This document shows, in pieces, positions 258 to 28,635 of a stretch of 64,000 nt of DNA; positions within the stretch are counted from its first letter, which is position 1, and each line of letters begins with the position of its first letter. The DNA is from a virus: positions 1-64,000 of the IMG/VR virus record IMGVR_UViG_3300023179_000074. One strand, written 5' to 3'. Made by a program: the position numbers and the translations under genes. Under the pieces are notes generated by a model, which saw nothing but the letters and a program-made list of their open reading frames with translations, was not told the DNA's origin and searched no databases.

Positions 258-572
258 TTAAAACTCAAAACTACATAGAACAACACCATATGAACCCCTA
301 CTAAACTCACCATAAAATATAGAATTGCTATTTTCGGGAATAAAGCCAAATGATTCATTGTTTATTACTCTATTATCTAAGAAATTAACTAAAATTTCAT
401 GATTTCCATTTTTATTTGTTATTATTAATGTTAGTTCTGTTTTATAATTTTCTAAAGAGTCTGTATTAAACAAAAATAAGCTTTTTGAATCACATAAAAT
501 ATCCAAAGAGTTATTGGGTGAATATAAACCGAATGTACCTGTAGGTCCTTGAAGGCTATATTTAAAATTCAT
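258..572 (-). CDS. Stand-alone copy of the small repeated head domain
   Basis: NFKYSL...FLFN...KNGN...R...ESFGF...F aligns with the C-terminal domain of 577..2595. Confidence 0.7.
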   Translation of the reverse strand: MNFKYSLQGPTGTFGLYSPNNSLDILCDSKSLFLFNTDSLENYKTELTLIITNKNGNHEILVNFLDNRVINNESFGFIPENSNSIFYGEFSRGSYGVVLCSFEF

Positions 573-576
573 ATTA

Positions 577-2595
577 TTATGGGTAATTAAACGAAATATA
601 TGATACGCCTAGTGTTTGACCTGCAGCATTAAATGTAGAAGTAAATATGCTTCCTGTTGACGTGAATTTAAATCCAAATGTTTCCCCGTCTGTATATCTT
701 TGCTGTAAGTAATTTATCGCCATCCATATATTTCCGTTTTTATCTTTAATATATAAGAGAGCTGGAGCATTATCTACAGGGATGGGGTTATCTCCGTTAA
801 AGTAAAATACACCTGTATTTCTCGGTGAAGGTTCAGAAGCAATATTAATAGATCCTGCAGGTGAATCAACACCACCGGGGGCATTTGATACATCGCTTAA
901 GCTATATTCAAAATTTACAGGTGTACATGTAGGAGTAGGTGTCTGAGTTCGGGTTGGTGTAATACTAATTGTAGGTGTTTGCGTTAATGTAGGTGTTATT
1001 GTCGGCGTCTGAGTTCGGGTTGGTGTGATACTAATTGTAGGTGTAATCGATATAGTAGGTGTTATTGTCGGCGTCTGAGTTCGGGTTGGTGTAATACTAA
1101 TTGTAGGTGTTAATGTCGGTGTAATACTAATTGTAGGTGTAATCGATATAGTAGGTGTTATTGTCGGCGTCTGAGTTCGGGTTGGTGTAATACTAATTGT
1201 AGGTGTAATCGATATAGTAGGTGTAATCGTAGGTGTCTGTGTTAATGTAGGTGTAATACTAATTGTAGGTGTAATCGATATAGTAGGTGTTATTGTAGGC
1301 GTCTTAGTTCGGGTTGGTGTAATACTAATTGTAGGTGTAATCGATATAGTAGGTGTAATCGTAGGTGTCTGTGTTAATGTAGGTGTAATACTAATTGTAG
1401 GTGTAATCGATATAGTAGGTGTAATCGTAGGTGTCTGTGTTAATGTAGGTGTAATAGTAGCATCAGGAGTTTGAGTTATTGTCGGAGTAATACTAATTGT
1501 GGGTGTGATCGACGTGGTTGGAGTAATACTAATTGTAGGTGTAATTGATATTGTAGGTGTAACAGTAGGTGTTTGTGTTAATGTAGGGGTGATACTAATG
1601 GTAGGTGTAACAGTAGGTGTTTGTGTTAATGTAGGTGTGATACTAATTGTAGGTGTAACAGTAGGTGTTTGTGTTAATGTTGGGGTGATACTAATTGTAG
1701 GTGTAATTGATAAGGTAGGTGATTGTGTGGGGGTTTGAGTTAATGTTGGGGTAATTGAAATGGTAGGGGTATTTGTAGGCGTTTGTGTTAATGTAGGTGT
1801 TATAGTTGCCGTGGGTGTTATGGATATAGTAGGCGTAATAGACGAAGTAGGTGTCTGTGTTATAGTAGGTGTAACGGTGGGAGTTTCCGTAACAGTAGGT
1901 GTTATTGTAGGTGTGGGTGTCGGGGATAAAAATTGTGTGGGCGTAACAGTAGGCGTTTCTGTAACAGTAGGTGTTATAGTAGGTGTAAGCGTTTCAGTTA
2001 CCGTAGGTGTTATGGTGGGCGTTAAAGTTACTGTAGGTGTTGGGGTTTCAGTTGTAGTTGGTGTAAGTGTAAAAGAGGGTGTAGGCGTTATAGATGGCGT
2101 AACTGTAGGAGAAGGCCCTAAAATATAAAACGGTACATTAGCATGCATATAATACCCTGAAAGAGAGGAAAGTGTTTTAAGCGCGTTAAATGTAAACGGT
2201 ATATCCGGTCTAAATCCAATTTGTGTTGTGTTAGACGAATCTAATGTTCCGATAGCAGAGCAAAGCGTAGAAGAATAAAGTGAAATAGATCTGTCTTCAA
2301 AAGGATAGGTTATAAAATTATATGCGTTAAAGATATAGATTCCCTCTTCGGGTATTGAAGATGGTTCATTAAAATATATAGTAATAGGTGAAGAAACTTG
2401 AACATAATAACCTGAATTGGGTAAAAAAAAGTTTATTTGATTAAAATCTGCAGGTATACCGGGTATGTACCCTAGCTGTGCATTTCTATCTTCTGTGTAA
2501 CCTACAGCTCTTACTATATTACCAAAACAAGAAATTGCTGTAAGTACAGTATTACTATATGTAAAAAAATTATATGGACCGGTTAAAGTTTTCAT
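577..2595 (-). CDS. Mucin-like Thr/Pro-rich virion appendage protein (duplicated N-domain, ~400 aa TPTI stalk, C-terminal head domain)
   Basis: Long (T/S)PT(I/V/L)T repeats between globular domains; lies in the baseplate/tail operon; TAATG coupling to the upstream gene. Confidence 0.75.
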   Translation of the reverse strand: MKTLTGPYNFFTYSNTVLTAISCFGNIVRAVGYTEDRNAQLGYIPGIPADFNQINFFLPNSGYYVQVSSPITIYFNEPSSIPEEGIYIFNAYNFITYPFEDRSISLYSSTLCSAIGTLDSSNTTQIGFRPDIPFTFNALKTLSSLSGYYMHANVPFYILGPSPTVTPSITPTPSFTLTPTTTETPTPTVTLTPTITPTVTETLTPTITPTVTETPTVTPTQFLSPTPTPTITPTVTETPTVTPTITQTPTSSITPTISITPTATITPTLTQTPTNTPTISITPTLTQTPTQSPTLSITPTISITPTLTQTPTVTPTISITPTLTQTPTVTPTISITPTLTQTPTVTPTISITPTISITPTTSITPTISITPTITQTPDATITPTLTQTPTITPTISITPTISITPTLTQTPTITPTISITPTISITPTRTKTPTITPTISITPTISITPTLTQTPTITPTISITPTISITPTRTQTPTITPTISITPTISITPTLTPTISITPTRTQTPTITPTISITPTISITPTRTQTPTITPTLTQTPTISITPTRTQTPTPTCTPVNFEYSLSDVSNAPGGVDSPAGSINIASEPSPRNTGVFYFNGDNPIPVDNAPALLYIKDKNGNIWMAINYLQQRYTDGETFGFKFTSTGSIFTSTFNAAGQTLGVSYISFNYP
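920..2120 (-). repeat. Coding VNTR: near-perfect 66-nt and 48-nt tandem units encoding [19 protein letters not shown](L/R)TQ and TPTVTPTISITPTLTQ
   Basis: Unit aggtgtaatactaattgtaggtgtaatcgatatagtaggtgtaatcgtaggtgtctgtgttaatgt recurs around 1180-1446; 48-nt units around 1540-1690. Confidence 0.9.
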
Positions 2596-3131
2596 TAAAA
2601 ATTAACTTCCCCGTCAACAAATAAACCGGAATATTGGATTGGACCTCCAGGTGTAAGACTAAAGCCAAATAATTGACCTATTCTATTACTTGAAAATGTA
2701 ACGAACATTCTCAAAACACCGCTAACCTTAATTAACATTATACTTCCTATTCCGAAAGGGTCATTACCGTTATAATAAAGCGTTTCATTCGCAGAAGATG
2801 TAGTTATAGCAATACCATCCTGAACGACAACGTTAGGATAATTACCAACAATAGACCTTAAAAATATAGGTGAGGGTGTTATAGTAGGAGTAGGTGTTAG
2901 CGTAGGTGTACGTGTAGGTGTAGTAGTAAGAATAGGTGATTTTGTCGGTGTTATAGTAATAGTAGGTGTAATTGTCGGTGTATTAGTAATAGTAGGTGTT
3001 ATAGTAGGTGTTGGTGTAAGCGTCGGTGTTATCGAGGGGGTAGGTGTTATAGTAGGGGTGGGGGACGGTAGAATAGGTATAACTCTATCATTACCTATAT
3101 TCTTATTAATTTTAAATAAAAAGTTTTTCAT
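2595..3131 (-). CDS. Short Thr/Pro-stalk protein with C-terminal head domain
   Basis: ~65 aa PT repeat followed by [15 protein letters not shown]...FGFSLTP domain nearly identical to that of 8103..9662. Confidence 0.75.
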
Positions 3132-3132
3132 A

Positions 3133-4743
3133 TTAATTTAATGTTACCGGTATGCCTAACAATGGTGATTTGGTGTTATCTGGTTTTAAAACATTTAATA
3201 ATAGTGATTGAATATCAAAAATTTTATTAAAGGCTCTATTAATTATATTGTTTGAGACAATTTCATTAGCACCTATATAAAATGAAAGATCTTGCTCGAA
3301 ATAAATTGAATTAAGTTCGAAAGGTAAAAGATAACGCGAACCTCTAAAAATAGGATTGCCTCTATTATCCTTTACGGCTAAAAACTTACCTATAATCTGA
3401 TCTCTTAATCTCATATGATTGATTATAATTTTAGATATAGTTTTGTTGAATATCCAATTTTGTAAGTATTCATCTTTGTTAATAACAAGCTCATCGTAAT
3501 TATATACATCAAAATTTCTTACTGCTAAAATATCATATAAATTTAAATTATCGTAAAAAAGACCAAACTTACCTGTATTGCCAAATTTTGTAAATACTAG
3601 ATTTTTATCGCAACCTATAGCTGATGTTGAACCAAATGCTGTAATTATTTCATTAGGCACATCATACTTAAAAAGATATAATAAATATTTTCCAATATTA
3701 TCATTAGGGTCACTAACAAATCTTTTATATATATTTCTATTAGATGCTAAATAAAAAACATTTGTATTGTTTTTTGAAAAGACGATTTTATTAAAAGATT
3801 CGTTTTCTAGCTTAAAAATATTTAAATCAAATTTTTCTTTTGATTGAAAATTATTACTATATCTAAAAATAAAATTATCATTAGTTAAAATATAGGATCT
3901 TCCTGTATAATCAATACCTATATCGATGGGATAAGAAGAAGCTAAATCTACATTTAGTCTATATGTTTGTATCCAATTGAAATTTAAATCATATTCTTTA
4001 ACACATAAATTACCTGAATCAAGAACTTGTAAAATATTATTATAAACAGCTATTCCTCTGGGGGAGTTAAATTCGGATTTCGAAAATGAAGTGCCGAAAT
4101 TACCGATAGAATCGACATATATTAAATTATTTCTCAATACATTATTATCCGTGGAAAAGCCGGATATATCGTATTTTATAATTTGATTTAATTTAGAATC
4201 GACAGCAAATAAATAAGTTTCGTTGGCTGCAAGTGCGGTAAGCGATTTAAAGATAACACCAAACCCAGGGTTAACTTCCGAAGTAGTATACACGTTATCA
4301 AAATACGTACCGCTAAAATCAAAATTATAAGCTCTCAATGCGGTGTTATAGCCTGCAAACGCAGTGAACTGATCTTTATTAATATTTTTGACAAGAACCA
4401 TTACGTTTGTATTATCTACACCTGTATAAGAAGGTTGTGTCGAAAGAGGTACAAATTGACTCGTGCTTGCGCCATAATAAAAAGTAACATTCGTATCATT
4501 ACCTGTAATTCCGGCAATAGCAGTAGAAGAGATAGGTATAAGATTTGACGAAATAAGAGTTTGTTTGTATAGGTAAAGAAAATTATCGTGAAGATATTTA
4601 ATTTTTAAATTTAGAAGACTACTTGAAACTGTATCGTTTGCTTGTATTTTTATTTCCTCAATACTTTTAGGTAATTCGAGTATACTATCTAAATATCTAT
4701 CAAAAACAATATTATTTTGTAATGCCTCTTCTGTTATATTCAT
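3133..4743 (-). CDS. NHL-repeat/beta-propeller structural protein
   Basis: GNFG...[10 protein letters not shown]...VLDSGN NHL signature; structural operon context. Confidence 0.6.
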
Positions 4744-7700
4744 TAATTACTCCATTTAATTTTATTTAATTTTGTATATCCAGGTACAGAATTATTAAGA
4801 AGATTTATAATTCTTTTTTCTAATTCTATTTTAAGTTCAGGATCAGTAATACCACTGTTTCTTATTGTTAGATTATATTGTGCTGACTTCGAACCGGGAT
4901 TGCTTATTTTGAAGAATCGTTCTATTTCTTCTACGTAATTTCTCATACCGCACGCGACGTCAAATCTCATATCCCTTATATCCATGCCTTTTCTAGTATG
5001 CATAAAAATATCAAAGTCGTATAGAGGTTTACTGTATAAGTAGAGATTTTTTATTTTTAAATTATCTACTAAAAATGAATTATTTTTAAGATAGGAAAAT
5101 AAAGGAATCGAAAATGTGTAGTTAGATGATCCTATTAAAAAAGGTCTTTGAATTAAATTACTGAATTTATATTTTCTAGGTTTAAATGTGCTAGTGCCTT
5201 TTATTTGCCCATCAACAAAGAGCTCCATAATACCGTTATCCGCATCGAAACGTATAGCAAAATTATGATATCCCACGTCTAACGAAGAAAGACTAAAAAT
5301 AATTTCTGACTCAGCTGTATCATTAGAATTAAAAACATTAATAAGTTTTGCTTTAAGATTAAGATTACTATTGCCATATCTTGATTTTACAAACGATCTT
5401 AAGAAATTTGAATTAGAGAAGTTTGAAGCATTAGAAGTAATGCCAGAATAAAGAGTATTAGATACTAAATTACCATTAACATCGTATTTTTTATATTTTA
5501 TATTCTTATTAGAAGAACCTAGATAAGACGTAATTATAGCGTATTGATTATAATTACCTTCACTAAAATCGGCAGCTATATCTACTTTAAAATTTTTATA
5601 TTCGTTATCTGCTACACCGGATAATATAAAACTTCTATCTAAAGTATATTTTGCAAAATTGTTATTATTGTATAATAACCAAACATTTCCATCAAAATCA
5701 ATTGTAAAGTCGTTTATTACAGTATTAGATCTAAATGCGGTTGTAGTTTGTAGTTGCGTGGTGTCCCATGATAATACGTTTTTTCTATTTTCAGTCAGAA
5801 ATAGTATTTTATCACCTATTCTTTCTGATTTTATTCCATTTGTAAAGTAAAGCTTTTGATTATATATGTTTACTGTTGAGCTAGAATTTAAATTTAAAAA
5901 TCCTATGTTAGGTGCAAATGACTGTGTTAACTGTGATTCAGTAATTACATTAGATTTTAAATTTAACTGAAGGACCCGTTTACTACCTGGCGTATTTTCA
6001 ATTAACGCATATGCATATTCTTCATCATAATCTAAACTAATTAAATTTTTAAGCTTAAATGCACCGGGTGGAGTACTTTTTCTTGTTTCAGCAAATGATA
6101 TATTATATCTTCTAAAGGAATTATCGTTAAAAATTAAATAAAAATCGTTAAGCCCTTGTAATCTTATAATACCTTTAAGCTCTGAATCAAATCTAATATT
6201 ATTAAGGGAATCAAAACTAATATTAGTTACATTTATAGAACTTAAATTGTTTATAAAAAATGTAGGGGTAACAAGATTAGTATTAAAAATACCGAATCCG
6301 TCTCTATCATAATTACCTATGATTTGATATCCAAGAGGCTCATTCCAATCTGTACTGAAAGCATCAAAAATAAGAGTAAATTGTCCTGAATCTTGAATAG
6401 CAGATAAATTACTTGTAATACCATACCTATCGCCTTCAAATGAATATATATTGGCTTGATCAACTGAAGGAAGAACGTTTGAACCATTAGCAAATTTATA
6501 ATATGGTATTTTTTTATCTATTAGTTTTTCAGATATGGATTTAATAAAGTCTTCTGTATCTTTAGGCCCGTAGTGATGGTAGGCGTAATAAGTGCCTTTT
6601 TCAAAAATTAAATCGGAAGGTTTATCGAATACCCCTACCTCACCGAAAATTTCTTGAGCTTTATCAACTAAACAATCAAAAATAGAAATATAACGTACCG
6701 CTTGAAGCTCTCTGGAAGTTAAAGCTTTAAAAAAACTAGTAATTCTTGGATTATAATATCTATCAACCCAAATAGGTTTTACATTTATATCACGATTACC
6801 GGAAAGCCATGCGCATAAAAATTCTCCGGAATTTTCTTCCGAAGTATCGCCAAAATTAGTAGTATACTTGTAATCTGCTTTCTTTTTAAAGATTTTATCG
6901 GCTTTTATCGGGTGGTCACCGGCGATAGCACCCGCTTCTGTTAACCCTGAATCGTTGATATTAAGTCTTAAAAATGGATAGAAATTTTGTGGAATATGAA
7001 AGTAAGTAACTTTATCTTTTTTAAGAAGTATATTAGAAGTATAGCTTTCATAATTTAATGAGATGTTATCATTACCGTATTTTTGATTGCTTCCAGAAAA
7101 AATAGTTTGATAGTCTCTGAACTCTACATTATTTTCGTTAAAAAAAGGATTATTTCTAGATTGAAAATTTTCAGGGGTATTTGTATTTTTTAGAGAAATT
7201 GAATTTAAATTAAGCGATGAACCGGAGACATTAAAAAATTCATTATGAAAAAGTATGTTGGATTGAATTTGTTCATAACTTCGTTCACTATTAATATCTT
7301 GAGAATTCGTTTTAAAGTCTCTTTTATAACTAACCCATGGGTCATATAATAGAGTATTATTAGGTATTGGATTTCTAGAGCGTACTCTAAAAACAGATTG
7401 TACATTATAGGAGACATTAGTACCTGTAATAGGATCAACAAGCGTCAAAGATTCGGTATTAGCGTTAAAAAATACAAACTTAGCAATATCATTAATGTTT
7501 TTTAAAAGTATAATATAATCATATCTTCTATCGTAAACATAATAAAATATTTGCGGGCTATATGCACCAATACCATCTAACCCTGTATCTTTACAAAAAG
7601 ATAAATTACCGGTATAATCAACAGTTAAATATCTTATAATACCTTCATTTTCATGTAATATTTTACAGAACTTATTATCAAGCAATTCAATATCAAAAAG

Positions 7701-8090
7701 ATATTGATTATTGAAAGAGCTATAATCTCCAGATACTTTGAGAACAGCAGTATTAATAGTAACTGGGGGTTCACCTACCATCCAAAACCTGCTCGAAGGA
7801 GTAACAGACCCCACAGCATTAGCAGCAAAAAAAGTAGAGAATCCTTCGTCCTCTAATTTTGATAAGGTATCGATTTTTAAGCTACTTAAAATAAAATCTT
7901 TTTTTGATAAAAATAAACTTGAAAAATTATTAAGCTTATTATCGTTTAATTCTCTAAACGCTTCATTTACCGGTACATTAATACCCTGTTCGGTAAAATT
8001 AATAAATTCATTAAATTTTACCGTTTTATCGTATGTATAAGATGAAGAAAGACCAAAAAACGATGTTGAGGATAATGTATATACATCCAT
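4743..8090 (-). CDS. Large baseplate/tail-associated protein with C-terminal LamG/ConA-like domain
   Basis: 1115 aa; YHNFAIRFD...MELFVDG...FLIG...IKNLYLYSKPL resembles LamG; late promoter upstream. Confidence 0.55.
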   Translation of the reverse strand: MDVYTLSSTSFFGLSSSYTYDKTVKFNEFINFTEQGINVPVNEAFRELNDNKLNNFSSLFLSKKDFILSSLKIDTLSKLEDEGFSTFFAANAVGSVTPSSRFWMVGEPPVTINTAVLKVSGDYSSFNNQYLFDIELLDNKFCKILHENEGIIRYLTVDYTGNLSFCKDTGLDGIGAYSPQIFYYVYDRRYDYIILLKNINDIAKFVFFNANTESLTLVDPITGTNVSYNVQSVFRVRSRNPIPNNTLLYDPWVSYKRDFKTNSQDINSERSYEQIQSNILFHNEFFNVSGSSLNLNSISLKNTNTPENFQSRNNPFFNENNVEFRDYQTIFSGSNQKYGNDNISLNYESYTSNILLKKDKVTYFHIPQNFYPFLRLNINDSGLTEAGAIAGDHPIKADKIFKKKADYKYTTNFGDTSEENSGEFLCAWLSGNRDINVKPIWVDRYYNPRITSFFKALTSRELQAVRYISIFDCLVDKAQEIFGEVGVFDKPSDLIFEKGTYYAYHHYGPKDTEDFIKSISEKLIDKKIPYYKFANGSNVLPSVDQANIYSFEGDRYGITSNLSAIQDSGQFTLIFDAFSTDWNEPLGYQIIGNYDRDGFGIFNTNLVTPTFFINNLSSINVTNISFDSLNNIRFDSELKGIIRLQGLNDFYLIFNDNSFRRYNISFAETRKSTPPGAFKLKNLISLDYDEEYAYALIENTPGSKRVLQLNLKSNVITESQLTQSFAPNIGFLNLNSSSTVNIYNQKLYFTNGIKSERIGDKILFLTENRKNVLSWDTTQLQTTTAFRSNTVINDFTIDFDGNVWLLYNNNNFAKYTLDRSFILSGVADNEYKNFKVDIAADFSEGNYNQYAIITSYLGSSNKNIKYKKYDVNGNLVSNTLYSGITSNASNFSNSNFLRSFVKSRYGNSNLNLKAKLINVFNSNDTAESEIIFSLSSLDVGYHNFAIRFDADNGIMELFVDGQIKGTSTFKPRKYKFSNLIQRPFLIGSSNYTFSIPLFSYLKNNSFLVDNLKIKNLYLYSKPLYDFDIFMHTRKGMDIRDMRFDVACGMRNYVEEIERFFKISNPGSKSAQYNLTIRNSGITDPELKIELEKRIINLLNNSVPGYTKLNKIKWSN

Positions 8091-8102
8091 AAATTTATTT
8101 AA

Positions 8103-9662
8103 TTAAAAATTGACATCTCCATTAGTAAACACACCCGTATATTGGACGGGTCCATTAGGTGTAAGGCTAAACCCAAATGGCTGTCCTATCCTATTACCCC
8201 CAAAAGTAACAAATGCTCTAATTACTGAGCTAACCCTAATTACCATCGAAGCGCCAATACCGAATGGATCGTTTCCATTGTAATAAAGCGTTTCATTAGA
8301 GCTTGTAGTATTCATAGAAATACCGTCTGCTATAACTGTATTAGGATAATCACCTACCAAGGACCTGCTAAACGGATTCAACGTTGGGGTAACAGAAGGG
8401 GTTATTGTTGGTGAGAGAGTAATCGTTATTGAAGGAGTTATCGTTACTGTCGGTGTATTTGTAGGGGTTATAGATATAGTTGGCGTGGGAGATATAGTTG
8501 GGGTGAGTGAAGGTGTAATTGAAGGTGTTTGTGTTATTGTAGGTGTAATACTTTGTGTGATAGATGGTGTTATTGATGTTGTGGGTGTTAAAGAAACTGT
8601 GGGTGTTTGTGTAGGTGTTTCTGTTATTGTAGGGGTATTTGTAGGTGTTAAGGACGGTGTAATCGTTGGCGTATTAGTTAGAGTTGGTGTTATTGTGGGA
8701 GTAGGTGTTTCAGTTATTGTAGATGTTATGGTAATTGTAATGGAAGGTGTAATTGTAGGAGTGATAGTTGGTGTTTGTGTTATCGGTGGAGTATTGGTTA
8801 TGGTTGGTGTAATTGTAGGGGTAGTAGTTGGGGTTTCAGTAATAGTAGGCGTTATAGATATAGTTGGGGTAACAGAAGGCGTTATAGATATAGTCGGAGT
8901 AATAGTTGGTGTTATAGAGGGTGTAGGGGTAGGTAGAGCAATTGCGCTTTTTGGTACAATGAGAGAAGGATCTGCACTTAAAAGTAAGAAGTTAGAAACA
9001 AAATGAGTATTATTTTCTGAAATTTCAAATACTTCTAAACTTTTATCAAAAGCTTCATCTATTTTAGTAATTTGAGCAGAATTAATAAGTCTAAATTCAT
9101 CGTAATCAAAAAGTGTATCAGGTACGATAGATAGAGTAAATTTAAAATAATTAGAAACTACATTTCCATTCAAAACTGTTACTGTTGGGTGATAAGTAGT
9201 AATTTTATTATTTCTTGGGTAATAAGTATGGCTTATATTAGTAGAATTTGGTGTACCGGGATCTAAAGTCGCTACTGTAGGTAAAACGTTTAAAACTAGA
9301 TTTTTTTCTATATTTAAAATATCTTTTTCGTCATCAAAATTATAAACTATTTTAAGAGTGGGAAAATAACTATTATCTATTGAAGAGGGTATAAATGTTA
9401 AGGTTGTTGCACCTTTAAAAGTACCAAGATAAGCACTTAAACTTGTATTATTAATAGGGTAGCCCCAGGGAAAGAATAAGCCGCCGTTTGCAGTTACGGG
9501 GTACACGAAACCACCAACTGTTTGATCGAAAAAGCTTCCATTTGCACAAGCTGGCCAAACTATATTTGTTTCATATACTGGATCTAAAAACAGATAGTGA
9601 TTAATTATATTTGGATAACCTAGTTGTTGATAACTAGATAAAACGTAATTAATTACATTCAC
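8103..9662 (-). CDS. Mucin-like Thr/Pro-stalk virion protein with C-terminal head domain
   Basis: Globular N-half, ~185 aa TPTITPSI stalk (about 8380-8935), head domain shared with 2595..3131; TAAATA-N5-GTG start. Confidence 0.75.
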   Translation of the reverse strand: MNVINYVLSSYQQLGYPNIINHYLFLDPVYETNIVWPACANGSFFDQTVGGFVYPVTANGGLFFPWGYPINNTSLSAYLGTFKGATTLTFIPSSIDNSYFPTLKIVYNFDDEKDILNIEKNLVLNVLPTVATLDPGTPNSTNISHTYYPRNNKITTYHPTVTVLNGNVVSNYFKFTLSIVPDTLFDYDEFRLINSAQITKIDEAFDKSLEVFEISENNTHFVSNFLLLSADPSLIVPKSAIALPTPTPSITPTITPTISITPSVTPTISITPTITETPTTTPTITPTITNTPPITQTPTITPTITPSITITITSTITETPTPTITPTLTNTPTITPSLTPTNTPTITETPTQTPTVSLTPTTSITPSITQSITPTITQTPSITPSLTPTISPTPTISITPTNTPTVTITPSITITLSPTITPSVTPTLNPFSRSLVGDYPNTVIADGISMNTTSSNETLYYNGNDPFGIGASMVIRVSSVIRAFVTFGGNRIGQPFGFSLTPNGPVQYTGVFTNGDVNF

Positions 9663-9701
9663 ATTATTATTTACTAAAACATTAAAAGATTAAAATGAAA
9701 T

Positions 9702-11369: not shown

Positions 11370-12079
11370 TAGAATCTAACCCAATGATTTCCTAAAATAT
11401 CGTGAAAATGAAAACATTCCCTTAAACATCCTAATAAATTATAATCCCAACTCAAATTTGCAACCACGGAAGACATACCGATTTCTACACCTTCTGCAAA
11501 TGCCCAAATTTCTTCTTCATGTGAACGCCAAAATAATTTTTCCCAGAAATCTGAAAAAACTTTAAGCTTTTCATTATTTTTAAAAACAAGAATTTGTTCA
11601 TTACAAACATGACCTGCATCATAATCATCAATAACATCCAAATTGTATGGTTTTATTTTGTGGCGCCAGAAACAATGATCCCAATTTCTCTTACTTACAC
11701 CGATATTATGAGGTCGCTCAAAAACAAAATCTAAATTATTTTTTTCCATTTCACTAAATAAAAGATTAAATTTATCTTCATGAAAATGCGTATAGGTATC
11801 CCAATCAGCATCTATAAAGATAATATAGTCAGAATTAAGATCGATAGATTTTTTTATTGGTAAAAATTTAAGATTATAATTATACCAAGCACCATTTTTA
11901 GAGCGTATAGGATGGCCCTCTACAGAAACGGAAGTAAAATAACTAGGAATTGAGCTTAAAGAATCTGTTGCTATTAAAGATAAGGAATTTGTTGTATTGT
12001 TTTTAATATTATTATGCAAATTAACCGCGCTTTTTACATAATTTTCCCCTGTAGCTAATGAACAAAACGTGACGCTCAT
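11369..12079 (-). CDS. GT-A fold glycosyltransferase (GT6/GT8-like)
   Basis: FCSLATGENY start and YIIFIDAD (DxD) motif; within GT cluster. Confidence 0.6.
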   Translation of the reverse strand: MSVTFCSLATGENYVKSAVNLHNNIKNNTTNSLSLIATDSLSSIPSYFTSVSVEGHPIRSKNGAWYNYNLKFLPIKKSIDLNSDYIIFIDADWDTYTHFHEDKFNLLFSEMEKNNLDFVFERPHNIGVSKRNWDHCFWRHKIKPYNLDVIDDYDAGHVCNEQILVFKNNEKLKVFSDFWEKLFWRSHEEEIWAFAEGVEIGMSSVVANLSWDYNLLGCLRECFHFHDILGNHWVRF

Positions 12080-12780
12080 AGAATCTGTGAAAGTTTAATT
12101 GTTTTTTCGTTAAATGGTCCATTATCATGAATCATATAAGGATTAGTTTTTATTGTGTGTTTATTATCTTCAATTATAATATCGTCTTTTGAATCTAAAG
12201 TGCTAAAAAATATTTTTCTTTCTTGATCAAGTTTTATATCTTCTGAAAGTAAATACTCAATAGCCCATACAGCTTGATCATCATAAGGGCGGAAATCTTT
12301 AGTTATAATATTTTCCAAATGTTTAATTATATGCTCTGTTAATCCCATATATAAACCAGAATTTAAATACATATAAGGAGATAGTTTAGGTTTATTATTA
12401 TAAAGTTGTGATTCGTTAATAGGTGGCCACAAATTAATCTCTGAACAAAACAAAATATTACAATTAAAGATAGTAAAATCGTTTACTATATTTGAAGGGT
12501 CTCTGTAGAAATTTGTATCCGTTGCATCGCTAAAAATAATATATTTATAGTTTAATAATTTTTCTTTTATAAAATCTAACAAATAAACAATTTTATATTT
12601 GTATAGTTTATCGTAATATGACCCGCCTTGAACTAAATTATTGAATCTCGCAACGTATATATCTTCTTTATTAAAATATTTTAGCCCATTATTATAATAA
12701 ATTGGTTGATAGTATTCAGGATAGTCAAATAATACCGTGAGTAAAGCAATATCCTTCATTGTTTCATTTTTAAGAGCCAT
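12076..12780 (-). CDS. PLOD-type (procollagen lysyl hydroxylase GT domain-like) glycosyltransferase
   Basis: IIFSDATD, ILFCSE.NLWP, YLNSGLYMG, DDQ, IKLD..RKIF, IHDNG match the PLOD GT domain pattern. Confidence 0.7.
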   Translation of the reverse strand: MALKNETMKDIALLTVLFDYPEYYQPIYYNNGLKYFNKEDIYVARFNNLVQGGSYYDKLYKYKIVYLLDFIKEKLLNYKYIIFSDATDTNFYRDPSNIVNDFTIFNCNILFCSEINLWPPINESQLYNNKPKLSPYMYLNSGLYMGLTEHIIKHLENIITKDFRPYDDQAVWAIEYLLSEDIKLDQERKIFFSTLDSKDDIIIEDNKHTIKTNPYMIHDNGPFNEKTIKLSQIL

Positions 12781-13382
12781 GCTGTATCTTCAAACTCTTC
12801 AGAGAGATTATAGGGTAGATCTACTAAATTATAGTTGATTAAAGATTCTTGAACATCTTTTAGCATAATCTCTGCCCAGTTCCATATACGATTTTTTATC
12901 TTAATATTAAATGTATTTTCGTCTTTTGCATAATCATGAGCACCAATAATATCACCGGGTTTTAGAAATTTACTAAAAAAATTAAATTCAAACGCTTTAT
13001 TACCACCATCACAAAAAACAGCTATTCTTTTATTCTTACCTTCAAAATTAAAAATTTCATTTACAAGCTTAGTATCTGAAATTAAATCTTGCTTTAAAAA
13101 GATAAAATTATGTTCTTCAGCTAGCGATTTTGCCGCGTCTATATAAGGGTCGAAAGAATATATCTTTATATTTTTGTTAAGTTTTTTACGTGCAGTGTAT
13201 AGCATGCTTGTAAACCCCCCGTGATGTGTCCCGATTTCTACAACAATATCAATATTAATTTTTTCAAATAAGCTATAAACTGCGTAATAAGCATCAGGAT
13301 TTTGCATTGTAAATCCGTTGCCTGTTTCATCATGTACGCACCAACCCCTTTCAATGCTTTGTTTTTTTTCTTCAATATTCAT
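12756..13382 (-). CDS. Class I SAM methyltransferase (Methyltransf_24/CmcI-like)
   Basis: VVEIGT.HGG, IYSFD, DGG, LKPGDII.AHDY. Confidence 0.75.
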   Translation of the reverse strand: MNIEEKKQSIERGWCVHDETGNGFTMQNPDAYYAVYSLFEKINIDIVVEIGTHHGGFTSMLYTARKKLNKNIKIYSFDPYIDAAKSLAEEHNFIFLKQDLISDTKLVNEIFNFEGKNKRIAVFCDGGNKAFEFNFFSKFLKPGDIIGAHDYAKDENTFNIKIKNRIWNWAEIMLKDVQESLINYNLVDLPYNLSEEFEDTAWLLKMKQ

Positions 13383-13993
13383 AATATTGAATTATTTATA
13401 AAAAGAACATCGTCTTGTATATGATAATGATGCTGAGGGTGTCTTAATTGTTGCAATGTTTCTTTTTTAGAAAAATTAATTGAGTTCATGTAGTCTTCAA
13501 CATCTTTGTAAAGTGGTGCGTTAATATTAAACTCTTCTATAGATAATTCTAATAAAATACCTTTAGCTTTTTTTACAACATTACTACCACCTTTTAAAAT
13601 ATCTAACTCTGAGCCTTGTACGTCAATTTTAATAAAATCAAAAATTCTATCATTTAATACATCATCTAATGTAAATGTCTGCTCCTGCATAATAACAATA
13701 TCATCATCCTTAAAAAACATACTTTTTTCTCTGTAAATAGAATTACCGGTACAAAGAGGTTCGGATTTTCTTATATAATAAGGTACTGTTTTGACAGTAT
13801 CGCTAAAAAGCCCTATAAAATATTCAACATTTAAATCTTTTAAAGCAGGCTCGCAGAATTTATTACCTTCTATTAAAAAATATTTACTATTATTGAAAAT
13901 ATTCTTACTTTCATGATAAAACTGGCCAACGTTTGCGCCAATGTCTAAAATTGTTTTAGGGTCAAAATATTTTTTTATTAATTCTAAATTCAT
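13379..13993 (-). CDS. FkbM-family methyltransferase
   Basis: ILDIGANVGQF, TLDD, FIKIDVQGSELDILKG. Confidence 0.9.
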   Translation of the reverse strand: MNLELIKKYFDPKTILDIGANVGQFYHESKNIFNNSKYFLIEGNKFCEPALKDLNVEYFIGLFSDTVKTVPYYIRKSEPLCTGNSIYREKSMFFKDDDIVIMQEQTFTLDDVLNDRIFDFIKIDVQGSELDILKGGSNVVKKAKGILLELSIEEFNINAPLYKDVEDYMNSINFSKKETLQQLRHPQHHYHIQDDVLFINNSIL

Positions 13994-14961
13994 GCTTCCA
14001 CTACCTTTTCTAAAAAGTTTAAAAGATAATTACAATCAAAATATTTGCTTAATTTATTGTTAATAAACCAGGGTTGTGATAATTTAGCTTTATATTTTTC
14101 TTCATTATTATACAGTTCACGGACATCATTTACTGCCTCTTCAAAAGAAGAATATTTATGTACGTTAATAAAACTCTCTTCATTAAAGCCCTCCTTGAGT
14201 ACGTTTTGATTACCGTAAAAAATGGGTATGGTGTTAGCCGCCATAGCGTGAACTATTTTTTCTTGTGTGACATTAACAGTATTTGTATACTGAAAAGCTA
14301 TATTAAACTTACAATCTTTAAAAAAATTTATCTTGTCCCTATAAACTAGTCCATCCATTCTTCCAGTATAATTATTATTGATAAATTTATATTTGTTAAG
14401 ATCTAACCCCGGGGTGCCTCTCCAAGGCCCAGACGATCGAATCGGTGCAATAGTTTCAAGTAAATCAAAAATTTTAGCCCTATCATCATTATGTGAGCCC
14501 TGTACTATACTACAAAAATATTTTTTGTCCGTTATTATTTTTTCAGGATCTTTAGGTTCAACCAACCAATTAAAGGGTGTATCAAATATTCTGCTTTCAT
14601 CAAAAAGTGTCCAGCAATCTAATACACATGTAGGGAATCTTAGATATCTAGGATGGTCTATTTCTTCTACCCCTAAAACATAATTTTTATCAGATTCATT
14701 TAAAATACCATAATAATCTTTAAAAATTTCTCCGGATATAAAAATCTTTTTACAGTTTTTATACATTCCTATTTCTTTATAATTGTCTCTTAAAAAATCA
14801 TCGTAATCATTAACATTTGCGTGAAGATTGGTCCATAAAACTATATCCGGGGTTTTTCCATCAGGAATAACATGATATTTTTTATTTAAAACAAATCTAA
14901 AATAATTAATCCATGAATACATTTGAAAAAAGTTTGCTCTTGAAAGTCTAACTAATTTCAT
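13990..14961 (-). CDS. GT10 (alpha-1,3/4-fucosyltransferase-like) glycosyltransferase
   Basis: IFISGE, KKYFCSIV, DKINF...KFNIAF...TQEKIVHAMAANTIPIFYG...FNEESFINV. Confidence 0.8.
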   Translation of the reverse strand: MKLVRLSRANFFQMYSWINYFRFVLNKKYHVIPDGKTPDIVLWTNLHANVNDYDDFLRDNYKEIGMYKNCKKIFISGEIFKDYYGILNESDKNYVLGVEEIDHPRYLRFPTCVLDCWTLFDESRIFDTPFNWLVEPKDPEKIITDKKYFCSIVQGSHNDDRAKIFDLLETIAPIRSSGPWRGTPGLDLNKYKFINNNYTGRMDGLVYRDKINFFKDCKFNIAFQYTNTVNVTQEKIVHAMAANTIPIFYGNQNVLKEGFNEESFINVHKYSSFEEAVNDVRELYNNEEKYKAKLSQPWFINNKLSKYFDCNYLLNFLEKVVEA

Positions 14962-15000
14962 AAAAAGTATTTACAAAAAAAAATAAATTAATCAATATTA

Positions 15001-15633
15001 TTAGGTAATCTGTCTAAAATACTCGTTAATCAACTCTCCATCACTTCTGAACGGTATTCCTTTACCAAATATATAAGAAGGTATTTCATTTTCCCAAAAT
15101 ATACATAGCTCTTTTCCTTTATAGTTGTTTCTTATTTGTTCTGAATTTTTATTCGTTTCAATAAATGAATATTTTGGAAACAAAAATAAGTTATCTTCTT
15201 TTACATCAAAAATAGTCTTGTGATGTGAGTTACCTAGAAAATTATTACCATTTAAATAATTAAATTCATCATATTTTGAAGGAATGGCAATAAATCCTCG
15301 TTTAGATATTTTTTGAAGAAGTTCAATTAAATCTAAAGGATTAAACACATCTTCAAGAGTATGTGAACATATAGTAAAATCAAAAATTCCATTATTTTTT
15401 ACGTAATCAAAAATAGAGTTATACTGATTTTTATTTTCAATATCAATTTCAAATTGTAAAACGTCGGGTTTGTTAATTTTTATTGAATCTGCTATTATTT
15501 TACACTCCGGATAAGACCAGTAATAAGCTGCAGCACCTATATCGATAGATTTAAAATTGTTAGTTTCTATTATTTTTTTAACTCTATTTCTTATTCCATC
15601 TATATCATTATTATAAAACCATTCAGTAATCAC
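15001..15633 (-). CDS. Class I SAM methyltransferase (type 11-like)
   Basis: SIDIGAA, FDFTICSHTLED.FNP, RGFIAIPS. Confidence 0.75.
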   Translation of the reverse strand: MITEWFYNNDIDGIRNRVKKIIETNNFKSIDIGAAAYYWSYPECKIIADSIKINKPDVLQFEIDIENKNQYNSIFDYVKNNGIFDFTICSHTLEDVFNPLDLIELLQKISKRGFIAIPSKYDEFNYLNGNNFLGNSHHKTIFDVKEDNLFLFPKYSFIETNKNSEQIRNNYKGKELCIFWENEIPSYIFGKGIPFRSDGELINEYFRQIT

Positions 15634-15644
15634 AGAATTATTTA

Positions 15645-16922
15645 TTAACTTACTCTATTACCAATAACACCAGTGATAGGTTCTGCCCATCCTTTAGAAA
15701 GACTGTGCGGCCATACTATCCAGCTATGAGGCATCTTCTCACTATTAAATTCTCTCCAAACCTTACAATAACCATCCGGGTCTTTCATCATTCTATCAAT
15801 TTCTTCTTTATCTGCATCTTTGCGATATATATCTTGGCCTTTTTCATCTTTAAAAGCAACACACCAGAAATTATAGTCTTTCTCAGGCACTTGATCATAA
15901 CGAATATCTATGCAATGTTTAAAAATGCTTAGTAAAGAATCTTCAAACTCTTCTTCCGAAAGATTGTCATTAGGATTTGGTGCATATTTATTTTCTAAAG
16001 TGTGTCTTTGAATAGCCCTCTTCTTAAAGCAAAGACCGGAGTAGCGTTCATAATCTCTTAGGGTTCGCTCTTTACCGAAGTCAAATTTTCCAAAATCAAT
16101 ATCTTTCTTTTCATTGTCCATTTCAAATAATTTTCTATTACGAAGATGTGATTTATTATTCATTTCACCCCATAGAGGAATATCATCCCAGTGTTTTGTA
16201 CGGCCTTTACGAGTGTATTCATGCCACATAACAACTATATGAGGATGGAATAAATCGTACCCGTGTGTGTAAGATCTTACTGCTAAATTAATCTCTTCTC
16301 CATGAAAATAATAATACGGGTCATAGGGTACCTCTTTAATCCATTTACCAAGCGTAAAGATAAAATGGGCAGATACAAAGCGAGCGGGTACCGGGCAGCT
16401 TAATTCTTTATACTCATCAATAGATGCGGGTAAAAAAAATACAGCGCCTTCGGGAATAAATCTATCAAAATTCATTTTCCATGGAACGTTAATTCTTGCT
16501 TGTGGATCATTATCCGGATCAAAACTTGAAATGTAGGCTGTAAGAAGAGGTTTTTTGTGACCTTTTTTCTGTAACTGCTTAATCATATCAATACACTTAA
16601 CATCCCAATTTTGTGCAAAACGGTGATGACTGTCTAATTGAAGATGGTACTTTTCGTTTTTATAAAGAGATTGAATTTTATTTCTAGCCCAGCATGTGCC
16701 TTGACTTTCTTTATAAGGAATATCTAGTACGCGAAAACGTTTATCTGTAGTAAATTCTTCTAAAGATTCCTTTTCATCTCTTTGCCAAGCAATTCCAAAT
16801 CTTAAATTTTCAGGATATTTTGCATTCTTAATACAATCTCTTAAAGTAGGTAATAGCTGAGGATCCCTATAAGAAGCAATTGATATAAAAATAGTATTTT
16901 TTGAGTTAATCTCTTTGGTCAT
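15645..16922 (-). CDS. GT60 glycosyltransferase (Skp1/polypeptide O-alpha-GlcNAc transferase-like)
   Basis: TIFISIASYRDPQL, AKYPENLRFGI..Q, G.CWAR, LQLDSHHRF..NWD, VPYDP..YF.GEEI..AVR.YT.GYD. Confidence 0.85.
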   Translation of the reverse strand: MTKEINSKNTIFISIASYRDPQLLPTLRDCIKNAKYPENLRFGIAWQRDEKESLEEFTTDKRFRVLDIPYKESQGTCWARNKIQSLYKNEKYHLQLDSHHRFAQNWDVKCIDMIKQLQKKGHKKPLLTAYISSFDPDNDPQARINVPWKMNFDRFIPEGAVFFLPASIDEYKELSCPVPARFVSAHFIFTLGKWIKEVPYDPYYYFHGEEINLAVRSYTHGYDLFHPHIVVMWHEYTRKGRTKHWDDIPLWGEMNNKSHLRNRKLFEMDNEKKDIDFGKFDFGKERTLRDYERYSGLCFKKRAIQRHTLENKYAPNPNDNLSEEEFEDSLLSIFKHCIDIRYDQVPEKDYNFWCVAFKDEKGQDIYRKDADKEEIDRMMKDPDGYCKVWREFNSEKMPHSWIVWPHSLSKGWAEPITGVIGNRVS

Positions 16923-16956
16923 TGTTATATTTTATAAGACTATTAAAAAAAATCAA
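16923..16956 (-). promoter_or_regulatory. Sigma70-type promoter, leaderless, before GT60
   Basis: TTGATT-N16-TAAAAT-N6-ATG. Confidence 0.65.
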
Positions 16957-19608
16957 TTATCTGCTTGTTAATCTTATTGCGTTTAGATATGCATTAGATC
17001 CAGTGCAAAGAGAGGCAAGAATAGTAAGCCTACCACTATCTCTTGGAACTAAGTTATTAATTCTAAACACATTGTAATTATTTGCACTTAGCGAAGGTAT
17101 ACCTGATCCGGGTCCGGAAGTTTGAACACCGTAAGAACTTGTACCAGAATTATAACTTACTACATATTCAGTTTCACTTAAAAGAGCCGCAGAAGCTGAT
17201 CCAAAAATACTTAGATCATATATTTTATTTGTATTTAGGTTGTAGAATTCTAATTCAAAATACGAATTTCCATAAATGTAATCTTCAGTTGCCGATTCTA
17301 TGGCTAAGTTTCCTAAGTAAGCAGGGCTAGGGAATAATAGCCCTGGGTTAGTCGGGGCCCCGTCAGCACCTGTATAGTTACTAGCGCTTAAACCAAAGCC
17401 AGTTGATGTATTAGTTGTATCAACAAGATTATTTACATCATTTACTAGTTCAGTTATATTGTTCCAATACTTCGAATTTGAATCAATCGTAGTTTGATCA
17501 GTGCTTAATCCTAAATCTACTAAAATTTCAATAGGTACTCTGGTTTGCGTTACTGTAGGTGTTGGTGTTTGCGTCGGTGTTTCGGAAATTGTAGGTGTTA
17601 CAGTCACAGTTGTAGATGGTGTTAGCGTTATGCTAGGGGTAATTGTAATTGTGGGTGTCGGTGTCATGGATGTAGTAGGAGTAATAGAAGGTGTTTGGGT
17701 TACCGTAGGTGTAAGTGTTTCTGTTGGTGTTACAGATATTGTAGGTGTGGGGGAGAAAGTCGGGGTTATAGATGGTGTTGGCGAATTAGATGTTGTTATT
17801 GTTGGTGTCACGGTTGGGGTTACAGAAGGTGTAGGGGTAACAGGAGCAAAGTTATAAATCGCTCCGTCAGCGAATACATTAAAATAAACTGTACCAGTAT
17901 CCGTGGGTGAGAAACCAAAAGTAGTTCCATCTCTTGTATAGTCGTAAACAACATACATATAAATAACATTTTGATATTTTAACACCATTGTGGATTCAGA
18001 TGTAACGGTGGAAGGACCTGCGTTAAAATATAAAGTTGATGTGTTATCTGGAGCGCTAATAAAGATTTCCTGGCCTTCTTGTGTTTTATTACCCGGGCCG
18101 GATAACTTATATAAGAAAGGAGTAATAGTTATTGTAGGTGTTACTGTTATCGTTGGTGTTATGGATGGTGTAATAGATATCGTTGGTGTTATGGAAGGTG
18201 TAATCGATATCGTTGGTGTTATGGAAGGTGTTATAGTTACTGTTGGTGTTTGAGAGACAGTAGGAGTAACTGTTAGAGTTACAGTCGGGGTAACTGTAGG
18301 TGTTTCTGTAACAGTAACTGTAGGAGTTATTGTTGGAGTAATAGAAGTAGTGGGCGTTATAGTGGGTGTAATGCTAGAAGTGGGTGTAACCGTTGGAGTT
18401 AATGTAGGTGTAGAAGAGATGGTAATTGAAGGTGTTATAGAAATTGTCGGTGTCGGTGTTGGCGAAATAGGTATTATAGGCGTTTCGGTAATAGTAGGTG
18501 TTATAGAAATTGTCGGTGTCGGTGTAAGTGAAGTAGTAGGTGTAATTGACGGAGTAATAGATATAGTAGGTGTTATCGTAGGTGTAATAGAAATTGTTGG
18601 AGTAATAGAAGTTGTTGGAGTAATAGTAGGCGTTATTGAAGGGGTTATCGTTGGCGTTGTTGTTGTAGTAGGTGTAATAGAAATAGTAGGCGTAATCGAG
18701 GGGGTGATAGATATGGAAGGTGTTATTGTAGGGGTTACCGTTGGCGTTGTTGTTGTGGTAGGTGTAACTGCAGATGTATTCGTAACAGTTGGGGTAGCAG
18801 TTGCAGTTTTTGTGATAGTAGGTGTTTGGGTTCTAGTAGGTGTAATAGAAATTGTCGGTGTTATGGTAGGTGTAATAGTTACAGTGCATGTTGGTGTAAG
18901 GGTAACGGTTGGTGTAATGGTAGGAGTGGGAGTTAAAATAAAAGAATTTACATTTAAATTTTTAACGTAAAGATTAGTAGGGTATGGGCCGTTTGCAAAA
19001 CCTAAACAGGGAAATACAGTAGGTGGTAATCTATAGGGTAATTTAAAATTTACATAATTTGTAAAGCTAGATCCATCATTATGATCTATAATAATACGAT
19101 CGCCAATATCAGTTATACGAACTCTAAATACTGTATAATCACTACTAGCAATATTTGTATAAAGAGTTAATGGTTTTTTAAACGATGTAGATGTTAAGTT
19201 TTCTGATCTATAGAGTAAGTCATAGTTTCTATCTTCACTACTACGAATAGATATTGTATTAGGCAGTGGGGTGGAAAATCCGTTTAATTGCAAAATATCA
19301 GAACCAAAATTACCGGTTATGTCAAAGCCTATACCCAATGCACCTTTTTTAATTCCATTAAAAAAAGTTAAAGCGGATGAGGAAAGAGCTGTTAAGCTAG
19401 TATAGGCTAACCCCGGGCCCGGCGAACCACCCGATAAATAATCTATACTAGCGTCTACAAAAAATAAGCAGAATCCTTCTGAGCCGCTTAGTTGTGTGCC
19501 GATACATTTATATTCGAAAGAAATAATACAATCACGCGTAGTGTCAAGCGTATCGAGCCTGTATAAAACAGATGTATCGTTATCATGATTTAAATTATAA
19601 AAAGCCAT
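16957..19608 (-). CDS. Multidomain adhesin-like virion protein: L-type lectin, PT stalk, head domain, PT stalk, beta-sandwich domain
   Basis: GSEGFCLFF...GGSPGPGLAY...LGIGFDITGNF legume-lectin pattern; stalks at about 18120-18935 and 17540-17845; start placed at ATG 19608 (MAFYNL) just after the upstream stop. Confidence 0.7.
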   Translation of the reverse strand: MAFYNLNHDNDTSVLYRLDTLDTTRDCIISFEYKCIGTQLSGSEGFCLFFVDASIDYLSGGSPGPGLAYTSLTALSSSALTFFNGIKKGALGIGFDITGNFGSDILQLNGFSTPLPNTISIRSSEDRNYDLLYRSENLTSTSFKKPLTLYTNIASSDYTVFRVRITDIGDRIIIDHNDGSSFTNYVNFKLPYRLPPTVFPCLGFANGPYPTNLYVKNLNVNSFILTPTPTITPTVTLTPTCTVTITPTITPTISITPTRTQTPTITKTATATPTVTNTSAVTPTTTTTPTVTPTITPSISITPSITPTISITPTTTTTPTITPSITPTITPTTSITPTISITPTITPTISITPSITPTTSLTPTPTISITPTITETPIIPISPTPTPTISITPSITISSTPTLTPTVTPTSSITPTITPTTSITPTITPTVTVTETPTVTPTVTLTVTPTVSQTPTVTITPSITPTISITPSITPTISITPSITPTITVTPTITITPFLYKLSGPGNKTQEGQEIFISAPDNTSTLYFNAGPSTVTSESTMVLKYQNVIYMYVVYDYTRDGTTFGFSPTDTGTVYFNVFADGAIYNFAPVTPTPSVTPTVTPTITTSNSPTPSITPTFSPTPTISVTPTETLTPTVTQTPSITPTTSMTPTPTITITPSITLTPSTTVTVTPTISETPTQTPTPTVTQTRVPIEILVDLGLSTDQTTIDSNSKYWNNITELVNDVNNLVDTTNTSTGFGLSASNYTGADGAPTNPGLLFPSPAYLGNLAIESATEDYIYGNSYFELEFYNLNTNKIYDLSIFGSASAALLSETEYVVSYNSGTSSYGVQTSGPGSGIPSLSANNYNVFRINNLVPRDSGRLTILASLCTGSNAYLNAIRLTSR

Positions 19609-22750: not shown

Positions 22751-22758
22751 TTAAATAT

Positions 22759-28078: not shown

Positions 28079-28079
28079 A

Positions 28080-28565: not shown

Positions 28566-28635
28566 AATAGTATTTATCTGCATTTAATTGGTTTAAAAAC
28601 AGTTTTATACTATATCAAAACAATAAATAATTTAA

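Follow-up and report, generated by a model that had tools for sequence, protein, structure and literature searches.

Enzymes of glycosyltransferase (GT) family 60, or GT60, start mucin-type O-glycans on Thr/Ser in Dictyostelium and Trypanosoma cruzi, and a soluble member acts on the hydroxyproline (Hyp) of Skp1; all characterised members glycosylate protein Thr/Ser or Hyp (reviewed in PMC8724618). Here, a candidate pathway led by a GT60 enzyme is described in a 64,000-nucleotide stretch of viral DNA (the window), which is the first 64 kb of the 78,319-bp IMG/VR record IMGVR_UViG_3300023179_000074 (CheckV completeness of 36%). The window has a GC content of ~30% and, judged by its genes, comes from an uncultured T4-like myovirus. 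An eight-gene block at 9702-16922, headed by the GT60 gene, lies between genes for fibre proteins that carry long Thr-Pro (PT) stalks of the form (T/S)-X. The reading we favour, and regard as probable, is that this block encodes a cytoplasmic O-glycosylation system for the phage's own (Thr/Ser)-X fibre and baseplate stalks (in 577-2595, 2595-3131, 8103-9662 and 16957-19608).

Among protist proteins, Dictyostelium PsA carries a PTVT spacer, to which the presumed phage acceptors are similar. These acceptors also resemble the Thr/Pro tracts of T. cruzi gp72 (PMC3630849), and the phage enzyme shares with protist GT60 both the Pfam family (245 bits) and the DxH motif. Like Gnt1, it is predicted to be soluble, and just as Gnt1 is followed in its pathway by a GT2+GT74 enzyme, the phage GT60 is accompanied by a two-domain GT2-like partner (PMC8724618). 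The O-linked N-acetylglucosamine (GlcNAc) of Dictyostelium is sometimes capped with fucose (PMC8724618), and the phage block contains a fucosyltransferase-like gene. Unlike the protist enzymes, this GT60 is phage-encoded, has close relatives in many bacterial phyla and carries a conserved C-terminal extension of ~120 amino acids (aa); its presumed acceptors are virion fibres made in the bacterial cytoplasm.

Virus-encoded virion glycosylation is already known. In mycobacteriophages, cassettes of GTs and O-methyltransferases modify capsid and tail tube proteins, as summarised in PMC11600133 and PMC12619734, citing Freeman 2023. Those phages and the window phage have in common phage-encoded GTs together with methyltransferase and the use of their own structural proteins as (here predicted) acceptors. 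In the same summaries, the mycobacteriophage acceptors are the C-termini of capsid and tail tube subunits in siphoviruses of Actinobacteria, whereas those predicted here are the long (T/S)-X stalks of baseplate or fibre proteins in a T4-like myovirus, and GT60 would be the initiator. The Vp54 protein of chlorovirus PBCV-1 is also glycosylated by viral enzymes, as cited in PMC5852040. A PLOD-type GT domain is found both in giant viruses and in the window phage, which differs from them in its bacterial host, in having no collagen-like Gly-X-Y acceptor and in a presumed O-linked N-acetylhexosamine (HexNAc) on Thr/Ser in place of the atypical N-links of Vp54. Giant viruses (chlorovirus, mimivirus fibrils) possess soluble GTs and methyltransferase activities and glycosylate their virions independently of the host endoplasmic reticulum and Golgi, and mimivirus L230 is PLOD-like. 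In secreted bacterial enzymes such as Cellulomonas cellulases, Pro/Thr linkers between globular domains are O-glycosylated and thereby protected from proteolysis. Such short linkers (20-40 aa) receive their glycans from host systems in the course of export; in contrast, the stalks in the window span 88-416 aa and adjoin a dedicated gene block.

The closest cultured phages are Xanthomonas XacN1, Xoo-sp13, Stenotrophomonas CM1 and RAS14, whose GT60 homologues are 43-48% identical over 96% of the length (47% for XacN1). About 12 ORFs (open reading frames) of XacN1 also have PT tracts, and three of these follow the sheath genes directly. At least two glycoproteins in its virions are Schiff-positive and were tentatively credited to phage GTs (PMC5852040, Suppl. 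Fig. S4). The statement of an earlier note on this DNA, that no described phage has both mucin-like substrates and a GT60, consequently needs softening, although the XacN1 authors drew no link between GT60 and PT proteins (PMC5852040). The likeness between these phages and the window lies in the GT60 homologue, in the PT tracts (XacN1) and in the virion staining of XacN1. They belong to a different lineage with genomes of 310-385 kb, and the XacN1 GT60 lies among replication genes whereas that of the window lies in a baseplate/fibre operon. In XacN1, the GT60 gene precedes one for a 765-aa carbamoyltransferase (ORF334-ORF333, L209 11995-15712), suggesting that the glycan of this lineage is carbamoylated. 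In the library searched, no paper was found to connect GT60 with the Thr-Pro proteins of phages; what is new is the pairing of a GT60-led pathway with long (T/S)-X fibre stalks, which is seen in T4-like and jumbo phages and has counterparts in bacteria.

Stalk proteins and their distal domains

Between 258 and 28583, all genes lie on the minus strand with intergenic gaps of 0-39 nucleotides (nt). Four proteins of this baseplate operon carry stalks of Thr/Pro/Ser/Ile/Val, as the earlier note had claimed; their ORFs and tracts (88-416 aa) are given below, together with a stalkless copy of the head domain.

577..2595, minus strand: PT-stalk protein with an N-terminal domain, a 416-aa (T/S)-X stalk (aa 152-567, nt 895-2142) and a C-terminal head, from the ORF and its composition
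2595..3131, minus strand: small PT-stalk protein with an 88-aa stalk (aa 12-99) and a head (model pLDDT of the head, 95.7)
8103..9662, minus strand: PT-stalk protein with a conserved N-terminal domain, a 205-aa stalk (aa 232-436) and a head; in 17 relatives, a homologue comes after the GT block
16957..19608, minus strand: predicted L-type lectin domain, 285-aa stalk (aa 219-503), head, 114-aa stalk (aa 582-695) and C-terminal domain; directly upstream of GT60 in the clade
258..572, minus strand: stand-alone head-domain copy without a stalk, which aligns with the other four copies (profile match, E 3e-29)

Pooled over 1108 residues, the stalks consist of 39% Thr, 20% Pro, 15% Ile, 9% Ser and 4% Val (Thr, Ser and Pro together 68%), compared with 6.6% Thr and 3.6% Pro in neighbouring structural proteins. 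In each stalk, Thr, Pro, Ser, Ile and Val make up 81-92% of the residues and charged residues less than 3%. A hydroxy residue occupies every second position: given Thr or Ser at one position, the probability of Thr or Ser is 0.88-0.97 two residues later and 0.03-0.13 at the next residue. Unbroken (T/S)-X runs extend up to 90 dipeptides, with X being Pro, Ile, Val, Leu or Gln. As long, low-complexity Thr/Ser/Pro tracts with tandem repeats, the stalks have the sequence character of mucin-like PTS domains; in contrast to animal mucins, only the phage stalks alternate hydroxy residues strictly with Pro, Ile, Val or Leu.

Several stalks are built of tandem DNA units. Within positions 941-1800, the stalk DNA of 577-2595 contains units of 96 nt (1.9 copies at 98%), 48 nt (3.3 copies at 95%) and 162 nt (2 copies at 89%), which look like a recent repeat expansion; in the stalks other than that of 577-2595, similar peptides are specified by diverged codons. 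Opposite the stalks, the plus strand contains Val/Gly-rich ORFs at 1760-2128, 8485-9006 and 18350-18970; these were rejected as genes, since they mirror the ACN-CCN repeats in the reverse frame.

The N-terminal 228 residues of 16957-19608 were modelled with AlphaFold 2 (AF2) at a mean predicted local distance difference test (pLDDT) score of 88. Foldseek matched this model to ERGIC-53, VIP36 and legume lectins (E 1e-7 to 1e-5, probability 1.0, TM-score 0.55-0.62). The predicted model thus confirms an L-type (legume) lectin beta-sandwich at the level of the fold, and for this protein the lectin head proposed earlier is borne out to that extent.

A head domain of ~90 aa is present in five copies (258-572, 580-885, 2598-2855, 8106-8366 and 17848-18111), four of which directly follow a stalk. 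Its AF2 model is a beta-sandwich (pLDDT 95.7) for which no convincing relative was found in the PDB (Foldseek best E 0.19; VIA-align best Z 2.7). Matches to the domain are restricted to 63 representatives among 1.84 billion proteins, many of them again after PT tracts, and in one subfamily it occurs as 5-9 tandem copies. Because the head domain is confined to the two closest relatives among the loci fetched, the distal domains vary, and what the relatives have in common is the stalk.

The enzyme block and the proposed pathway

The eight genes of the block have fibre genes on both sides and follow the baseplate wedge genes in the same orientation, with gaps of at most 39 nt. In order of transcription they are:

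15645..16922, minus strand: GT60 polypeptide-GlcNAc-transferase-like protein, first gene of the block (PF11397, E 1.7e-72, 245.3 bits against a cut-off of 21)
15001..15633, minus strand: possible methyltransferase (Methyltransf_23, E 0.056, 13.6 bits against 27)
13990..14961, minus strand: GT10-like, fucosyltransferase-type protein (PF00852 C-terminal domain, E 8.9e-10, 39 bits against 23.9; partial match, model positions 51-133 of 182)
13379..13993, minus strand: FkbM methyltransferase (PF05050, E 1.3e-14, 55.2 bits against 22.7; TIGR01444, E 1.7e-14)
12756..13382, minus strand: probable class I S-adenosylmethionine-dependent methyltransferase (Methyltransf_24, E 1.5e-4, 23 bits against 26.3; weak RMNT_CmcI match)
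12076..12780, minus strand: PLOD-type GT domain protein (PF25342, E 5.8e-15, 55.6 bits against 27)
11369..12079, minus strand: probable GT-A-fold nucleotide-sugar transferase, a lead only (Atlas structural neighbours including PF03407/GT8-like clusters, TM-score 0.65-0.74; no Pfam match)
9702..11369, minus strand: two-domain transferase with an HtrL_YibB-like N-terminal half (E 3e-15) and a GT2-like C-terminal half, from Pfam and NCBIfam

The GT60, GT10-like, PLOD-type, HtrL and FkbM assignments pass their cut-offs. Matches for the GT2-like half (below the Pfam cut-off, E 0.0026), for two methyltransferases and for one GT are weak, which leaves the earlier count of five GT genes (six domains) and three methyltransferases plausible.

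The alignment of the GT60 protein to PF11397 covers model positions 1-44 and 93-350 of 352. Among 83 phage sequences, D97-S98-H99-H100 (DxH) is invariant and 143 further positions are at least 97% conserved; QLDSHHRF, used as a search pattern, also recovered bacterial GT60 relatives. From knowledge of the family, we infer that DSHH is the catalytic metal/nucleotide-sugar motif (DxH/DxD type) of GT-A transferases related to GT27. A sequence search retrieved no relatives of the GT60 with solved structures. The protein has no membrane segment (the highest 19-residue Kyte-Doolittle mean is 1.13) and lacks a Golgi-type signal anchor; it is predicted to be a soluble, Gnt1-like enzyme. Past the Pfam domain, residues ~300-425 form a C-terminal extension of ~120 aa in which H336, D349, W353, W389, W404 and W412 are conserved. 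This extension is highly conserved in the 83 phage sequences, is kept in bacterial relatives and may be an acceptor-binding domain. No membrane segment was detected in any of the eight block proteins, and no match to lipid-carrier priming transferase, flippase, polymerase or ligase families was found in the block.

In the proposed pathway, the soluble GT60 would place a HexNAc, most likely alpha-GlcNAc from host uridine diphosphate (UDP)-GlcNAc, on stalk Thr/Ser in the cytoplasm. The two-domain HtrL/GT2 enzyme would then add the next sugar or sugars, and the variable enzymes (GT10-like, PLOD-type GT, GT-A-like protein, FkbM and other methyltransferases) would finish and methylate the chain. 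Glycosylation would precede virion assembly, and its product would be an extended, protease-resistant glycoprotein stalk bearing variable distal domains (the L-type lectin or the ~90-aa beta-sandwich head). We infer this sugar, this acceptor residue and this order of steps, as well as a benefit to the phage, for which stiffening, capsule penetration and shielding are proposed as roles.

Association of GT60 with stalk genes and competing explanations

Among the viral contigs of IMG/VR, 397 stretches were confirmed to carry a GT60 relative, and 80 phage loci were fetched. The HtrL/GT2 gene accompanies GT60 in 73 of these 80 loci while the genes in between vary, which points to a core of two conserved enzymes joined by exchangeable accessories. 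Members of the window's clade (L003-L022) have PT proteins on either side of the block, just as the window does. A second set of relatives was fetched by alignment to the baseplate protein 19610-22750, irrespective of GT60 status. Locally, 12 of these loci have both GT60 and PT genes, none has GT60 alone, seven have PT genes alone and 32 have neither. In most relatives with a 41-49% identical baseplate protein, the module stops at that gene, and neither PT proteins nor the GT block follow; PT fibres and GT block thus behave like a single inserted unit.

The same association is seen over whole records of 43 related phages, in which PT genes were found in 10/11 records with GT60 and 4/32 without it (Fisher p 5e-6). 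The eleventh GT60 record is also PT-positive under the ORF criterion, and the four PT-positive records lacking GT60 are only 16-36% complete. PT genes are present in each of the ten GT60 records with a completeness of 90% or more, often more than 50 kb from GT60, which indicates that linkage is not required. In the reverse direction, viral records of at least 40 kb were sampled by a TPTxTPTxTPT DNA pattern, and GT60 was present in 14/38 of them compared with 1/26 for a collagen-like repeat control (p 0.002). An independent distribution of the GT block and the PT-stalk genes among relatives, which the earlier note had named as pointing to modification of host lipopolysaccharide (LPS) or capsule, was therefore not found.

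Full-length GT60 relatives were also identified in 147 bacterial genomes. Among 80 bacterial loci fetched, a PT-tract ORF lies within 10 kb of GT60 in 30 and within 250 bp in 18, mostly directly upstream and on the same strand. The loci that combine PT and GT60 genes come from at least six phyla (Gemmatimonadota, Bacteroidota, Acidobacteriota, Alphaproteobacteria, Actinomycetota and Verrucomicrobiota), and some of them are possibly prophage. The HtrL/GT2 partner adjoins GT60 in 26/80 of the bacterial loci and is fused to it in one. To the earlier proposal that the GT60-led block serves the stalk proteins, these data add co-occurrence across phage lineages and adjacency in bacteria.

Individual bacterial loci differ in the proteins that bear the tracts. 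In a Vicinamibacterales metagenome-assembled genome (MAG; L478 5232-13558), three PT-tract proteins, one with an RRRF Tat-like N-terminus and fn3, precede a 1184-aa GT60-HtrL-like fusion. A Gemmatimonadaceae MAG (L464 9260-13002) encodes a PT protein with a PqqD-like domain, then GT60, then HtrL/GT2. In L495 6403-10008, L513 6384-10004 and L504 8859-9980 (Sphingomonas, actinobacterial MAG), the PT protein directly upstream of GT60 has an Rv2525c-like glycoside-hydrolase-like domain.

Several observations weigh against stalk glycosylation by the block. To our knowledge, no structure has been solved in GT60. The place of the PT proteins in the virion rests on gene position, and the Schiff-positive bands of XacN1 were not matched to named proteins. 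The association counts share ancestry, as 10/11 of the GT60 records in the related set form one clade, and 50/80 bacterial GT60 loci have no nearby PT ORF. Four PT-positive fragments of relatives show no GT60; in two of the fragments (G018 and G026, 18-36% complete), PT proteins follow the baseplate genes and the GT block was not seen, the records being too incomplete to conclude absence. Five complete PT-bearing phages have neither GT60 nor GT2, from which it follows that PT tracts do not need the pathway. In a more distant phage group, GT60 lies within a large GT island outside the structural genes, and similar cyanophage clusters are usually read as host-surface modification (PMC12801897).

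The five complete phages, the distant GT islands and the cyanophage clusters would fit a block that, during infection, builds or alters a glycan located elsewhere than on the stalks (on host proteins, LPS, capsule or some other surface polymer), with the PT tracts serving as unglycosylated spacers that are common in these phages by chance. In addition, the name HtrL/YibB comes from a gene linked to the LPS-core genes of Escherichia coli. This explanation appears unlikely, if the most serious of the alternatives: no priming transferase, flippase, polymerase or ligase family was matched in the block and no membrane segment was detected, and neither the adjacency of GT60 and PT genes in several bacterial phyla nor their joint presence or absence in phage relatives is explained. 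Characterised GT60 enzymes, moreover, act on polypeptides only (PMC8724618).

Less likely again is glycosylation of other virion proteins (capsid, sheath or tube) with the PT stalks excepted. Such targets are those of the known phage and chlorovirus systems, which act on capsid and tail tube according to PMC11600133 and, for PBCV-1, the account in PMC5852040, and the unassigned XacN1 glycoprotein bands would be compatible with them. This scheme gives no account of why GT60 tracks PT genes in phages and adjoins them in bacteria, which have no capsid.

It is also conceivable, at a low probability, that GT60 acts in the manner known from Skp1, on Hyp of the Pro-rich stalks after prolyl hydroxylation, instead of on Thr/Ser. 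Gnt1, the soluble GT60 of the protist cytosol, transfers GlcNAc to Hyp, and a bifunctional enzyme with a GT2 part acts after it (PMC8724618); one residue in five of the stalks is Pro. A complete distant phage (G048, the IMG/VR record behind L025) encodes a 2-oxoglutarate (2OG)-Fe(II) oxygenase (C1:122733-122951, PF13640, E 9e-9) ~8 kb from GT60, and a Hyp route may exist in some lineages. In the window phage such a route is improbable because no PF13640 oxygenase was found in the 78-kb record, nor in the complete GT60 phages G001 (of the window's clade), G002 and G003, and because what stays invariant in the stalks is the alternation of hydroxy residues, with Pro interchangeable with Ile, Val and Leu. 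Finally, transfer of sugars to phage DNA, for which T4-like phages and the multi-GT hypermodification systems cited in PMC12619734 provide precedent, can be set aside almost entirely, as the families in the block include none known for DNA glucosyltransferases, the block is part of the structural operon and bacterial GT60 adjoins genes for PT proteins.

O-glycosylation of the stalks by the block remains the most likely explanation because the association is strong, recurs across lineages and fits the function of the GT60 family. A broader proposal is put forward more tentatively, as a possibility that we rate below even: a widespread and hitherto unrecognised prokaryotic and phage mucin-type module would consist of a soluble GT60 initiator with a C-terminal domain, an HtrL/GT2 extender and exchangeable capping and methylating enzymes, and would turn strictly alternating (Thr/Ser)-X tracts into bottle-brush stalks, both in the fibres of phages and in surface or exported proteins of bacteria. 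Such a module could be the prokaryotic stock of the eukaryotic GT60/GT27 initiators. If stalk glycosylation is correct, tailed phages of aquatic and plant-associated bacteria coat their receptor-binding appendages with self-made mucin-like glycans, which would bear on fibre length, stiffness, protease resistance and host recognition. Protein O-glycosylation outside eukaryotes would gain a large family, represented in the searched collections by at least 397 viral contigs and 147 bacterial genomes, and (T/S)-X repeats would provide a simple rule for predicting substrates. The prediction can be tested now, as cultured XacN1, Xoo-sp13, CM1 and RAS14 have the same enzyme and tracts and virion proteomics of XacN1 are public (PXD008065).

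Neighbouring genes

The module is flanked by further structural genes of the same strand:

19610..28583, minus strand: baseplate genes anchoring the module, encoding a 1046-aa conserved protein, a gp7-like protein (split gene) and gp6-like and gp25-like wedge proteins (phrog_219, phrog_261; synteny in relatives)
3133..8090, minus strand: two large structural proteins of 536 and 1115 aa, family unassigned, conserved in the clade (tblastn matches in 6 and 15 related loci, order kept)

The two proteins of 3133..8090 gave no Pfam or PHROG match, and GenBank phages queried with the 4743-8090 protein alone gave none either. T4-like genes of the window include those for the tail sheath (41392-43686), a gp6-like wedge protein (26219-28078) and a gp25-like wedge protein (28080-28583); a large terminase, a DnaB-like helicase and a DNA polymerase are also encoded in the record. 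The late-promoter motif TATAAATA is not enriched (14 sites compared with 25 expected), and no claim of early or late expression is made for the block. At 22759-26219, the gp7-like gene is divided between two ORFs, 25221-26219 (332 aa) and 22759-25224 (821 aa, TTG start), and relatives have at this position a single ORF of ~1143-1176 aa (L086 6561-9992, L090 3823-7353 and L212 6150-9614). The split could be due to a frameshift, a sequencing error or programmed frameshifting.

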